Shown: piece after piece, positions 7,272-40,769 of the stretch
Numbering within the stretch: the first letter of the stretch is position 1
Layout of the letters: every line of letters begins with the position of its first letter
DNA from: a virus
Length of the DNA: 64,000 nucleotides
IMG/VR virus record: IMGVR_UViG_3300003323_000257
Coordinates: 69,923 to 133,922 of that record
Reading direction: 5' to 3' (one strand)
Made by a program: the position numbers and the translations under genes
The notes under the pieces: generated by a model
Databases searched by the model: none
What the model was told of the DNA's origin: nothing
What the model saw: only the letters and a program-made list of their open reading frames with translations

Positions 7272-7532
7272 ATGTACTCCTGTTTAGTAGAGTCGCGCAT
7301 TAAGGGTGAGGACGAGTACGAATGGTTTCGCTATCTAGGTAAGCCCATTGAAATCCCTTTCAGGGGAATTACCCGTACGTTGGAAACCGATCAAAAGATT
7401 GGAGTTAGGAAGTCTTCCAATGGAAAACAAATTCGTATGGTCTTCGATGGAGATATCAACAGAGTAATGACCTTGGATTTGGCATTGGCCAAAAAGATTG
7501 CTTCCAAAGTTAAACCAGTTAAAGGACGTTAA
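7272..7532 (+). CDS. Hypothetical (probable virion) protein
   Basis: ATG directly after the portal stop; SH3-like beta content. Confidence 0.65.
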   Translation: MYSCLVESRIKGEDEYEWFRYLGKPIEIPFRGITRTLETDQKIGVRKSSNGKQIRMVFDGDINRVMTLDLALAKKIASKVKPVKGR

Positions 7533-7533
7533 T

Positions 7534-7983
7534 ATGGAACGCCATCCTTATGTGATGGGTCTGATCTGGGATCATTTTACTCCACAGGTGCAGGCCCAGG
7601 TTGTAAAGGATTTGATAGCTATCCAGAACCAACCAAACGGCCGAAATCTGATGGTCTATTATGATGCTGATGTTCCTGAACTAGCCGGACTCTTGAACTC
7701 CATGCAGATTAAAAGGACTCCAGCCAAAGTCTTGGCCAAACTATGGGTCCTTTATCAGACAGGTCCAGAACAGCTTGAAGCCCCAGAGCATGCTGCTGAG
7801 GTGGTAGAGCGTGATATGCAAATCGGTGTTAAGGATCCTGCGATCTTGAATACGGATGAGCAGTCAGGCTTCTATTTGGCTCCTCAGGGGCGTAACATAT
7901 CCCCTACTCTGGATTTAAATCGTCCTATGCCAGGTTGGTATCCAGGTGGCCCTACCGCAGATTTGGTCTGGCTATGGGGATAA
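7534..7983 (+). CDS. Hypothetical protein
   Basis: TAA-T-ATG coupling to the previous gene, AAAGGA upstream; start reassigned to 7534. Confidence 0.65.
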   Translation: MERHPYVMGLIWDHFTPQVQAQVVKDLIAIQNQPNGRNLMVYYDADVPELAGLLNSMQIKRTPAKVLAKLWVLYQTGPEQLEAPEHAAEVVERDMQIGVKDPAILNTDEQSGFYLAPQGRNISPTLDLNRPMPGWYPGGPTADLVWLWG

Positions 7984-7985
7984 CA

Positions 7986-7995
7986 CAATTTAATG
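7986..7995 (+). promoter_or_regulatory. Class-1 motif CAATTTAATG
   Basis: CAATTTAATGACTG identical to 19128-19141; upstream of the baseplate operon. Confidence 0.6.
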
Positions 7996-8181
7996 ACTGT
8001 AGCCTACACGAGGAACTGGGTTTCGTAAGAAACCGACTCGCGGAAGGGTGCAGTCTCTTCGTTTTAGGGGACGGTTAGGTCTGTAGGCCCTCACAACCGT
8101 CCTCTCTTTTTACCCATGGGCGTAGCTGACTCATGAGGATCTTCTCTCCGGCTATTCCCAAGGGTCCTTTTAAAGAGGACC
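7995..8181 (+). ncRNA. Candidate structured RNA element A (four consecutive stem-loops) / structured leader
   Basis: Stems 7995-8005/8045-8055, GGTTTC-GTAA-GAAACC, 8067-8076/8095-8104, 8118-8128/8149-8159, 8163-8169/8175-8181; begins at the end of a CAATTTAATG motif. Confidence 0.55.
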
Positions 8182-8185
8182 ATTC

Positions 8186-9151
8186 ATGGCATCTCTCAAT
8201 GATCTACTTGCAAAGGCACGTTTGACTCCGCCTTCAGCTATTCTGAGTCCTGATGTTCGAAATAATGCGGTTACTCAGTTTAGGTCCACTACCAACCAAA
8301 TTCGAAATATACCGGCATCCATTTTAGATGCTTCTGCTGCAAAGCTTCAAGGTGCTGTTGGTAATGCTGTACAGACTGGATTGTCTGACGTTCGTGGTGC
8401 AGTCGTCCAAGCTTTGAGCGGCGATTTCAGCGGTGCTCTAACAACCATAGCACAGGGCCCTCAGGATGTTCTGGGGATGATTGAAGCATCATTTGGGTCC
8501 AATACCAGCGGTACTCCAAATCCATTCCTAGCTAATGGCGCACCAGTGAACACGCTGCAAGGAGCATTAGGTAGAAGCGATCCACTCATGAGCTTCCAAT
8601 GGTATTGCGATCTGCCGACTGTTACTCCTATCGGAGGCGCCCCTGCAAATCTCTCCTGGGAATATGTGGAGGAAGCAACTCCAAACTTTAGGGTGTTCGA
8701 AGTTCAGTCCATGCACTTTCAAGGCCGCAATCGTAATATTGTAGGCAAGTATTCGGTGGACCCTTTGCGCTTGAATTTCTACGCCGATGTATCGAACACT
8801 GCACTCCTGTATCTGCAGGCATGGAACGGTGCGGTACTTCGTCCGTTTGACGAATCCCAGGCTTCTTCTATGGGCGGTGGCTTCGGAAGACCATCGGACT
8901 ATATGAAGCCCATTAATCTGTACCTGTTTGACCCAACCAAGGCCTTAGTGTTTAACCTTAGCTATACCGAGTGCTGGCCTACTTCCACAGAAGGTTTACA
9001 CCTAGATAGCGGATCATCTACGCGATTGACCTTCAATGTTTCCTTTAGTGTAGGCGATGTTTTCATTCAGGCCCTCAAGATCAATAACAATCTTAGCGGG
9101 CAGTTTTTGCTCAACACCATAACCAATAATCTGCTTTCTGGCATACTCTAA
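8186..9151 (+). CDS. Tail tube-fold baseplate/tube initiator protein (T4 gp48/gp54-like)
   Basis: C-terminal tube-like region (LRLNFYAD...YLQAW...LSYTECWPTS...FNVSFS); first gene of the baseplate operon. Confidence 0.55.
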   Translation: MASLNDLLAKARLTPPSAILSPDVRNNAVTQFRSTTNQIRNIPASILDASAAKLQGAVGNAVQTGLSDVRGAVVQALSGDFSGALTTIAQGPQDVLGMIEASFGSNTSGTPNPFLANGAPVNTLQGALGRSDPLMSFQWYCDLPTVTPIGGAPANLSWEYVEEATPNFRVFEVQSMHFQGRNRNIVGKYSVDPLRLNFYADVSNTALLYLQAWNGAVLRPFDESQASSMGGGFGRPSDYMKPINLYLFDPTKALVFNLSYTECWPTSTEGLHLDSGSSTRLTFNVSFSVGDVFIQALKINNNLSGQFLLNTITNNLLSGIL

Positions 9152-19127: not shown

Positions 19128-19137
19128 CAATTTAATG
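19128..19137 (+). promoter_or_regulatory. Class-1 motif CAATTTAATG
   Basis: Upstream of element B and the GIY-YIG gene. Confidence 0.6.
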
Positions 19138-19229
19138 ACTGAACGCGTGAGGGAAAAGGCCGGCCAGCCCTGCGATGCCGCAATCATCGCTACCTCTCGT
19201 GGTTCAGTCACCTAACTATTGCGGAGTTA
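19136..19229 (+). ncRNA. Candidate structured RNA element B (multi-way junction with kissing loop) in front of the GIY-YIG gene
   Basis: P1 TGACTGAAC/GTTCAGTCA, GCGTGAGG/CCTCTCGT, GGC/GCC, GCGATG/CATCGC, TAACT/AGTTA; loop CCGCAAT exactly complementary to loop ATTGCGG. Confidence 0.65.
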
Positions 19230-19233
19230 TCAG

Positions 19234-20239
19234 ATGTCTCGTTCAGAACGAATGGCACCTTTAGCTGCCATTATCAATTCCTATAAGACCAATACTCAGC
19301 CATATACCAACTACCTACACAACTTAGCTGCATTAGCTATCCAACTCAAGAGCCTCAAAGATGACCGATGGATTCTAGAAGAGGAGCTATGCGAGCACTA
19401 CGTTTACGTGTACCTAGATCAACGTAAACCACATGGAAAATACAAATATGTTTGTCCAAGTGGTAGGATTGTAGCGTTCCCACATCCACCTTTCTATGTT
19501 GGCAAGGGAAAACACGGAAGAGTGGATGCTCATCTAAGTGAAGCAGAAAAGCGCAAAGGAAAACCTGGCCAACACGGACATAAACTAAATACTATCTGGG
19601 CCATTCAAGATGAACTTGGTGTCGATCCAATTAGGATAGTTACAGCTTCATTGCAAACAGATTGGATGGCACAAGCCTTAGAGATAGACCTCATAGCTGG
19701 AATAGGAAGAAAAAATCTCAAACTAGGACCTTTAACCAATCTAACAAATGGTGGAGACGGAAGTAGTGGAAACGTACCGACTGTAGAGGCTAGATTAAAA
19801 GCTAGTGAATCTAATAAAGGTATGAAGTTTTCCAGTGTTTCTGTGAGAAAGCGGGTAAAAACCAGAACACTACGCGGTAGGTACGCTGTTCCTCTTGAGC
19901 GTCGCAAAAAGATAGGTAACAAGCTAACAGGTCGTAAGAATGGACCACCTTCTGAGGAAACTCGTAAAAAGATAAGTGTGTCCAACACAGGAAAAATAAT
20001 CTCAGAGGAAACAAGGAGAAGACAGCGTGAGGCAAAGCTAGGTGGTTCTCTATCAAAAAAATCATAGAAAACATATAAGTGAATCTATGAAAAATTATAA
20101 AATGACAGACGAACACAGAAAAAATCTAAGTAAGAGTGCACAAAATCAACCTATTGCCAGATGTCCGCACTGCCCTATGTCAGGTAAACTAGGTGCCATG
20201 ACGCGCTGGCATTTTAATAATTGTAGACACCGAACATAA
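19234..20239 (+). mobile_element. Free-standing GIY-YIG (LEM-3-like) homing endonuclease with NUMOD3 repeats, split by a frameshift at an A7 run
   Basis: YVYVYLD...FYVGKG...R...E...LTNLTNGGDG; SEETRKKIS repeats; the second frame (to 20239) carries the usual CPHC...MTRWHFNNC end. Confidence 0.85.
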
Positions 20240-25579: not shown

Positions 25580-25627
25580 AATTATACTCCTTTAGCGGAA
25601 GGGTTGTGTTCTCTTAATGGAACCGAT

Positions 25628-40743: not shown

Positions 40744-40769
40744 AGGCCCTTATTGAGGCACTCAAGTTA

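Follow-up and report, generated by a model that had tools for sequence, protein, structure and literature searches.

A conserved two-domain structured RNA at the head of the baseplate operon of phiRSL1-like jumbo phages

The DNA considered here (the window) is a stretch of 64,000 nucleotides (nt), positions 69,923 to 133,922 of the virus record IMGVR_UViG_3300003323_000257, and makes up the last 64 kb of this linear IMG/VR phage contig of 133,922 bp (completeness estimate 57%). We describe a structured leader RNA located on the plus strand at 7984-8185, in the gap between the stop codon (7983) of a 161-aa open reading frame (ORF) and the ATG at 8186 of a 321-aa gene. The 161-aa ORF (7498-7983, plus strand) is the last of the portal-side block of genes and is syntenic in all relatives; a family search with it gave no match. 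The 321-aa gene (8186-9151, plus strand) is the first of the baseplate block and matches tail-tube families of PHROG. Homologues of its product, the nearest of which are ∼60% identical at most, are annotated as ‘tail tube initiator’ in Burkholderia phage BcepSauron and as ‘baseplate protein’ in Achromobacter phage Motura. Genes located further 3′ match Phage_base_V/gp5 (the gpV/gp5 spike) and the baseplate wedge; a match to T4_baseplate among them is weak, under Pfam's cut-off. An earlier sequence-only reading of the window had placed a baseplate operon downstream of this gap, and these family matches and annotations agree with it. The phage itself is related to known jumbo phages: its portal protein has 51% identity to the portal of Ralstonia phage phiRSL1, with the portals of Burkholderia phages BCSR5 and BcepSauron and of Motura being next nearest.

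The sequence at 7984-8185 is a conserved structured RNA, encoded on the plus strand, in seven uncultured phiRSL1-like jumbo phages. When folded as 207 nt the region reached −76.9 kcal/mol (z = −3.64), and none of 200 shuffled sequences did as well. The uncultured relatives are L002 and L003 (IMG/VR), L065, L066 and L067 (Joint Genome Institute metagenomes) and L096; the identity of their tube-initiator proteins is 42–60% (42% for L096), and the parts of the RNA follow one another in the same order in all. The alignment of the six close copies has a mean column identity of 75%; nucleotide identity of the element is 69.5% (with gaps counted as mismatches) versus 53–61% for the flanking coding DNA.

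The RNA has two domains, domain 1 (8002-8111), which ends in a terminator-like hairpin, and domain 2 (8112-8185). Two covariance models were built from the six close copies, R1 from domain 1 with the terminator and R2 from domain 2. The L096 site was detected by both (E = 2e-6 with R1 and 2e-16 with R2). The homologous site of BCSR5 was the sole R2 match in the 227-kb genome (E = 1e-5); Motura (E = 0.05) and BcepSauron (E = 0.005) gave weak matches at the homologous place with filters off. Scans with R1 and R2 found one copy in the contig of the window and one in the L003 phage; in each scanned genome the element is single-copy and always located ahead of the tube-initiator block. On the minus strand the models scored at most 21 bits, compared with 88–95 bits; together with the G-U pairs these low scores indicate that the RNA is read from the plus strand and argue against a minus-strand RNA. 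Protein coding was rejected as well, as ORFs across the region are not conserved. Covariation was assessed on 6–8 sequences, with four more read by eye; closer homologues from ∼25 Logan contigs (P0002-P0033) lie outside this sample.

In the cultured phages phiRSL1, Motura, BCSR5 and BcepSauron the gene order is kept, and a 170–235-nt gap at the syntenic spot holds diverged versions of the element. These gaps share a plan, in which a CCAATTT-type motif (degenerate in BCSR5, CCCAATCGG) is followed by the GGAAGRGU hairpin and then by a strong hairpin with a U-run; the hairpin with GGAAGRGU just 5′ of its closing strand is present in the cultured relatives except BcepSauron. The second domain is recognizable in BcepSauron and BCSR5. 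In BcepSauron (L072, 1376-2348) an additional 245-aa gene, gp254, which overlaps the tube-initiator gene, is situated between the leader and that gene; thus the leader marks the start of the operon rather than the tube-initiator gene as such.

No described RNA resembles the element in the collections searched. Rfam 15 at gathering thresholds gave no match in the whole window; when E values up to 10 were admitted for 7950-8230, the sole match was a chance one to snoU54 (17.5 bits versus a threshold of 35). No further copies came from blastn against GenBank phages or from scanning viral and metagenome contigs with single proteins. When viral contigs were scanned for a 15-mer, 54 matches appeared, real ones only in two contigs already known; a gapped pattern had no match across GTDB genomes, and scans with a domain-2 pattern yielded chance matches only. 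The literature searches found the element nowhere described. It is a structured-RNA family new to Rfam and to the papers searched, placed at the head of the baseplate operon in phiRSL1-like jumbo phages.

The first helix of domain 1 is P1, whose 5′ strand (8008-8018) consists of P1a (8008-8014) and P1b (CUG, 8016-8018) and whose 3′ strand (8051-8062) consists of the corresponding CAG (8051-8053) and P1a (8056-8062) segments. P1b is invariant. P1a changes among relatives with pairing maintained (ACGAGGA/UCUUCGU, ACGCGGAG/CUCCGCGU, ACGUGGGG/CCCCACGU, ACGUAGAGU/ACUCUGCGU); 91.5% of P1 alignment cells are paired, with three compensatory pairs. Enclosed by P1 are the P2 hairpin (8019-8034; 96.9% of cells paired, two compensatory pairs) and a purine-rich strand (8035-8050) between P2 and the 3′ strand of P1. 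P2 varies in sequence, length and loop. The longest conserved block is here: CUCGCGGAAGGGUGCAG (8037-8053), made of the purine-rich strand and P1b, is invariant over 17 nt in the six close relatives. Its core GGAAGRGU is present in phiRSL1, Motura and BCSR5, with GAGAAGGGUG as the counterpart in L096. Taken over the whole domain in the model-based alignment, 95.4% of cells are paired and 11 of 26 pairs have compensatory changes; in slid controls, with partners moved by 1–3 columns, only 42–51% of cells were paired. When the six close copies were folded from just past the motif that precedes the domain (see below), P1-P2-P3 was the minimum-energy fold in all of them. The alignments were fitted to the R1 and R2 models; the exception is a helix of domain 2, X:X′1, which is outside the model.

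A different first stem had been proposed from the window alone, a long irregular hairpin GACTGTA...TGCAGTC capped by a GNRA loop. GACUGUA (7995-8001) can pair with UGCAGUC (8049-8055), in this phage only, and the outer stem was rejected as a family feature; the conserved fold is the P1a, P1b and P2 arrangement given above. The GNRA loop likewise turned out not to be a feature of the family, the P2 loops of relatives being GUAA, GAAA, UUCG, CUUG, AUU and UCAG.

Domain 1 is closed by P3 (8066-8105), a terminator-like hairpin with an 11-bp stem and an 18-nt loop containing a mini-hairpin that presents UGUAG. A CUUUUU tract (8106-8111) follows directly. In P3 98.3% of cells are paired, with compensatory changes in 6 of 10 pairs. 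A stable hairpin and then a run of at least four Us were seen in all 11 sequences read, with hairpin energies of −13 to −32 kcal/mol in eight relatives. P3 with its U-run thus has the sequence characteristics of an intrinsic (Rho-independent) terminator. A simple terminator scan, limited to loops of 3–8 nt, missed P3 because its loop measures 12–35 nt.

The 5′ tail GCCUACA (8002-8008) is an exact complement of UGUAGGC (8082-8088) in the P3 loop, as had been pointed out before, and this pairing is kept in five of the six close copies. Other complementary pairs occupy the same two places in more distant phages: UGAGCG/CGCUCA in phiRSL1, UCGGCG/CGCCGA in BCSR5, GUCAC/GUGAC in Motura and UCCUG/CAGGA in L096. 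Duplex energies compared with shuffled loops give modest statistical support (p = 0.03–0.76 by lineage, combined p = 0.03). A pseudoknot between the 5′ tail and the P3 loop is likely, though not established. The second complementarity noted by the sequence-only reading, between CCTCA (8089-8093) and TGAGG (8134-8138), is present in the window and absent from every relative. The suggested pseudoknot switch was not upheld: one of the two pairings is unconserved, and the other leaves the P3 stem free of competition and so is not a terminator switch as such.

A well-supported switch does exist in the second half of the region, where the sequence-only reading had missed it. Strand X (CAUGGG, 8115-8120) can pair with a proximal partner, X′1 (CUCAUG, 8130-8135), or with a distal one, X′2 (CCCAAGG, 8157-8163, of which 8157-8162 pair with X). 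Pairing counts in domain 2 were taken on eight sequences. All 48 cells of X:X′1 are paired and 96.4% of those of X:X′2, each helix having three compensatory pairs. A further helix, S2, formed by UAGCUG (8123-8128; 97.9% of cells paired), situated in the loop of the X:X′1 hairpin, and CGGCUA (8149-8154), is compatible with both folds. X:X′1 with S2 is 99.0% paired and X:X′2 with S2 97.1% paired, with four compensatory pairs each, compared with 22–52% in slid controls. Since the X:X′1 helix is absent from the alignment model, its count is free of fitting bias. In BCSR5 all three X strands have changed in concert (CGGGAG with UUCCCG and with CUCCCG). BcepSauron keeps X:X′1 (CGGUG/CACCG) and S2 (GCUGGCA/UGCCAGC) and lacks the middle of X:X′2.

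X:X′1 with S2 makes an H-type pseudoknot that is sterically unremarkable, its loops measuring 2, 1 and 13 nt. X:X′2 with S2 makes a long hairpin with X:X′2 as its outer stem, and this is the form preferred in nearest-neighbour folding. Covariation in each of two helices that exclude one another is the hallmark of a conformational switch. The 10-nt strand CAUGAGGAUC (8132-8141), invariant, single-stranded, GGA-containing and similar to a Shine-Dalgarno (SD) sequence, sits in the third loop of the pseudoknot, equivalent to the long hairpin's apical loop; its GAGGAUC is found also in L096 and BcepSauron, with GAGGUUC in BCSR5. A six-codon mini-ORF (8116-8136; AUG NGC GUA GCU GRC NCA UGA) exactly covers the X to X′1 hairpin. 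All six close relatives retain it, L067 with GUG as the start codon; as it is missing from BCSR5 and BcepSauron, we take it to be probably a by-product of CAUG palindromes.

The last hairpin, P5 (8163-8181; GGUCCU/AGGACC), has the SD sequence AGAGGA (8174-8179) in its 3′ arm. It covaries between relatives (to GGUUCC/GGAACC, a C-G to U-A change), and hairpins of −7 to −11.3 kcal/mol are found at this place in 8 of 11 sequences. Occlusion of the SD as an unusual property was not supported, the predicted accessibility being ordinary for the genome. AGGAUC was considered as a decoy pairing with the anti-SD arm; this pairing holds for the window, is weak in L003 and fails in BCSR5. Hairpins at 8066-8105, 8113-8164 and 8163-8181 (the last with GAGGA in its 3′ arm) had been proposed from the window sequence. 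All three are present and are kept by compensatory changes in relatives.

The region opens with a promoter-like motif, CAATTTAAT (7986-7994, plus strand; consensus CAATTTHAY), located at a fixed spacing of 39–44 nt from the conserved core and identified by its recurrence before genes. Elsewhere in the genome the core AATTT[ACT]A[TC] occurs co-oriented with genes, 10–40 nt 5′ of start codons; in the window these sites, 10–30 nt from the start codon, are 2536, 5402 (before the portal gene) and 51518 on the plus strand and, on the minus strand, 40742, at the head of the minus-strand structural operon. Of the six CAATTTHAY sites in the L003 phage, five are followed by an SD and a start codon, and Motura has 11 motif matches against none for the reversed control. 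This distribution suggests that CAATTTHAY acts as a promoter or start-site motif of structural genes and makes it a candidate for the late promoter of the clade; at the locus in question the transcript would start within the motif at 7986-7994 or a few nt 3′ of it. A separate hairpin-plus-U terminator, following the upstream gene, precedes the motif in L002 and L065 (L002:2756-2790 and L065:1668-1712, between this gene and the CAATTTCAT motif). In the window and in L003 there is no such extra terminator and the motif begins 1–3 nt past the stop codon. A second motif, TAGTAAATA, which is similar to the T4 late promoter, is located just 5′ of the ribosome sites of many genes (in the window at 40768 and 46016 on the plus strand, with nine more sites upstream of the window in the contig). 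It precedes mainly genes of replication and nucleotide metabolism and represents a promoter class distinct from CAATTTHAY.

The sequence CAATTTAATGACTG is found at 7986 and at 19128, the start of the leader of a homing-endonuclease gene (element B, 19128-19236). The first 14 nt of the two had been reported as identical; the identity indeed holds and extends to 15 nt, ACAATTTAATGACTG. It is explained by the promoter-like motif, which recurs before other genes. Element B resembles the baseplate leader in this stretch, in being a long structured leader and in having a hairpin at the ribosome site. The common part, however, is only the motif plus 5 nt, and neither R1 nor R2 detects another copy in the genome. 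Like the leader of this phage, element B opens with GACUG as the 5′ arm of a long hairpin (19137-19144); the leader and the cassette of the homing endonuclease may have exchanged sequence.

We propose that the region is a two-domain, cis-acting leader of the baseplate operon, combining attenuation with a translational switch on the plus strand, and we give this interpretation about even chances of being correct. Transcription would begin at or just after CAATTTAAT (7986-7994). The first ∼110 nt would fold into P1-P2, the conserved purine-rich strand (GGAAGGGUG) and P3, with the 5′ end probably paired with the P3 loop. P3 and the U-run would act as an intrinsic terminator, such that a part of the transcripts stops near 8111 as a short RNA, and the baseplate genes would be reached by read-through transcripts only. 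The interval from P3 to the ATG in the window contains no second promoter-like motif; baseplate transcripts therefore have to run through P3, with a short RNA that stops at ∼8111 as an expected by-product. In the read-through RNA, X would pair with X′1 (the H-type pseudoknot with S2) or with X′2 (the long hairpin), directly 5′ of the SD hairpin, and the balance between the two forms may tune how often translation of the tube-initiator gene is initiated. This balance might be set by a protein that binds the invariant single strands. The purine-rich strands GGAAGGGUG and GAGGAUC, both GGA-containing and SD-like, are putative protein recognition sites; as a speculation, host proteins of the CsrA/RsmA type or the 30S subunit could be the binders.

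Several observations weigh against this interpretation. Hand inspection of the alignments revealed no conserved antiterminator pairing that competes with P3, so termination is possibly constitutive rather than regulated. (The sole candidate, a pairing of the P2 3′ arm with the P3 5′ arm, works in the window and fails in L003, L066 and L002.) In the nested thermodynamic model the SD region is predicted to be unpaired with a probability of 0.31–0.55, while the median for genes of the genome is 0.49. The overlap of the long hairpin with P5 is seen in L003 and L066 and is barely present in the window, which makes the link from the X switch to translation weak. An SD follows just 1–4 nt downstream of several motif sites; initiation must then occur within or very near the motif, and the start site is uncertain. 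Finally, the covariation comes from as few as 6–8 sequences in model-fitted alignments, X:X′1 excepted.

An unlikely alternative, though one with definite points in its favour, is that domain 1 forms a small RNA gene of its own (promoter, ∼110 nt, terminator), whose product acts in trans through CUCGCGGAAGGGUGCAG on RNAs or proteins of the host or the phage, and that domain 2 is a separate ordinary leader. The sequence features do have the classical layout of a small RNA gene, the longest invariant block is in a predicted single strand, and a 5′ end paired into the terminator loop would give a closed, nuclease-resistant RNA. Yet domain 1 is never found apart from domain 2 or from the tube-initiator gene, and read-through would be required anyway, since the downstream operon lacks a promoter-like motif. 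Nor does the complement of the invariant strand have a convincing target in the 134-kb contig, where one 10-of-11 match compares with about two expected; none of the trans targets considered for the invariant strands rose above chance there. The match in question, AACCCTTCCGC (window 25595-25605, minus strand), is located just 5′ of the SD of a minus-strand gene. The cis-acting leader and a separate ∼110-nt small RNA are not mutually exclusive; the small RNA would then be of the StxS kind, an RNA that arises by early termination (PMC7547250). The sequence-only reading had offered either a ∼115-nt stable small RNA or an attenuator of the baseplate operon; both are still the leading options, backed by the motif, the ∼110-nt structure and the terminator-like hairpin, without the pseudoknot switch that had been attached to them.

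It is rather improbable that the element is passive, with P3 ending head-gene transcripts, the remainder stabilizing or insulating the 5′ end of the baseplate mRNA and a weak, hairpinned ribosome site keeping the protein scarce with no sensing involved. A terminator at the boundary between gene modules and the failure to find an antiterminator alternative would fit this explanation, as would the fact that baseplate initiators are needed in few copies; gp48 and gp54 of T4 are baseplate-initiator proteins required in low copy number. What it leaves unaccounted for are the invariant single-stranded blocks of 17 and 10 nt and the two exclusive covarying helices, which exceed the needs of stability or insulation. 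In L002 and L065, moreover, the upstream genes have a terminator of their own.

We regard it as similarly doubtful that domain 1, taken together with its terminator hairpin and the pairing between that hairpin's loop and the 5′ end, is a new sensor RNA, riboswitch-like or put-like, which couples transcription of the baseplate/tail operon to a signal, with domain 2 being a second, independent translation switch. If it were, candidate signals would be a phage late protein, RNA polymerase itself or a small molecule, and the leader would be a two-checkpoint RNA controller of virion assembly genes, a kind of controller without a described counterpart.

More specific versions of such a role for domain 1 fare worse. 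Like the put RNAs of HK022, domain 1 could modify RNA polymerase in cis to read through the terminators of the baseplate/tail operon; a promoter-proximal, conserved, bulged two-helix RNA does head an operon of >10 kb, and no lambda-Q-type family is seen in the four complete genomes of the clade, the incomplete L003 record or the contig of the window. But the element ends in a terminator-like hairpin of its own and has no sequence or model similarity to any described RNA, and we consider a put-like action very improbable. Least credible is the aptamer of a metabolite riboswitch, in which the tail-to-loop pseudoknot would close a three-way junction and P3 would serve as the expression platform: the layout of conserved junction, pseudoknot and terminator is there, but no Rfam riboswitch matched even at E = 10, no alternative pairing joins a ligand pocket to P3, and the genes under control have structural rather than metabolic products.

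Almost nothing is known about late-gene control in the phiRSL1-like jumbo phages, whose hosts are Ralstonia, Burkholderia and Achromobacter. With the leader described here the clade gains a testable RNA regulator comprising a motif that may be a late promoter, a terminator proximal to it and a switch between pseudoknot and hairpin. Cultured members carry the element, making direct study possible. Bistable RNAs with covariation in both states are uncommon and are useful models.

Among known systems, one that the proposed cis-acting leader resembles is the late control region of lambdoid phages. In Shiga-toxin phages, transcripts from the late promoter that terminate early yield the StxS RNA (PMC7547250). 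As in the lambdoid PR′-tR′ (6S RNA) and StxS arrangement, a promoter, a short RNA and an intrinsic terminator head a long late operon, and the short RNA may be a product in its own right. The differences are that in the phiRSL1-like leader the RNA fold itself is conserved and covaries, that a second, translational domain follows and that the phages carrying it are jumbo myoviruses of virulent type, not lambdoid. The Q antiterminator families PF03589 and PF06530 are absent from the contig of the window, the L003 record and the complete phiRSL1, BcepSauron, Motura and BCSR5 genomes, although a very divergent Q would escape such a search. Given this absence of Q from four complete genomes, the element is not a member of the lambda Q system, even if it should be similar in working.

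With transcription attenuators and riboswitches the leader shares the placement of a conserved structured RNA between promoter and terminator ahead of the regulated genes. It differs from them in that no mutually exclusive antiterminator was found and no Rfam family matches. A conserved fold supported by covariation, as the sensors of these systems have, is present in domain 1, with the paired fraction and the 11 of 26 compensatory pairs given above (95.4%).

Domain 2 invites a comparison with translational operators. The E. coli rpsO/S15 operator and the T4 gene 32 leader pseudoknot are such operators, which alternate between a pseudoknot and hairpins. The likeness to these systems is an H-type pseudoknot competing with a hairpin just 5′ of the ribosome-binding site. 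In the phiRSL1-like leader, in contrast, the SD is in a separate neighbouring hairpin, not inside the pseudoknot, the binder is only putative, and there is no sequence similarity to either operator. The property that is characteristic of the rpsO type, two exclusive folds that are both under selection, is found in domain 2, where X:X′1 is 100% paired and X:X′2 96.4% paired.

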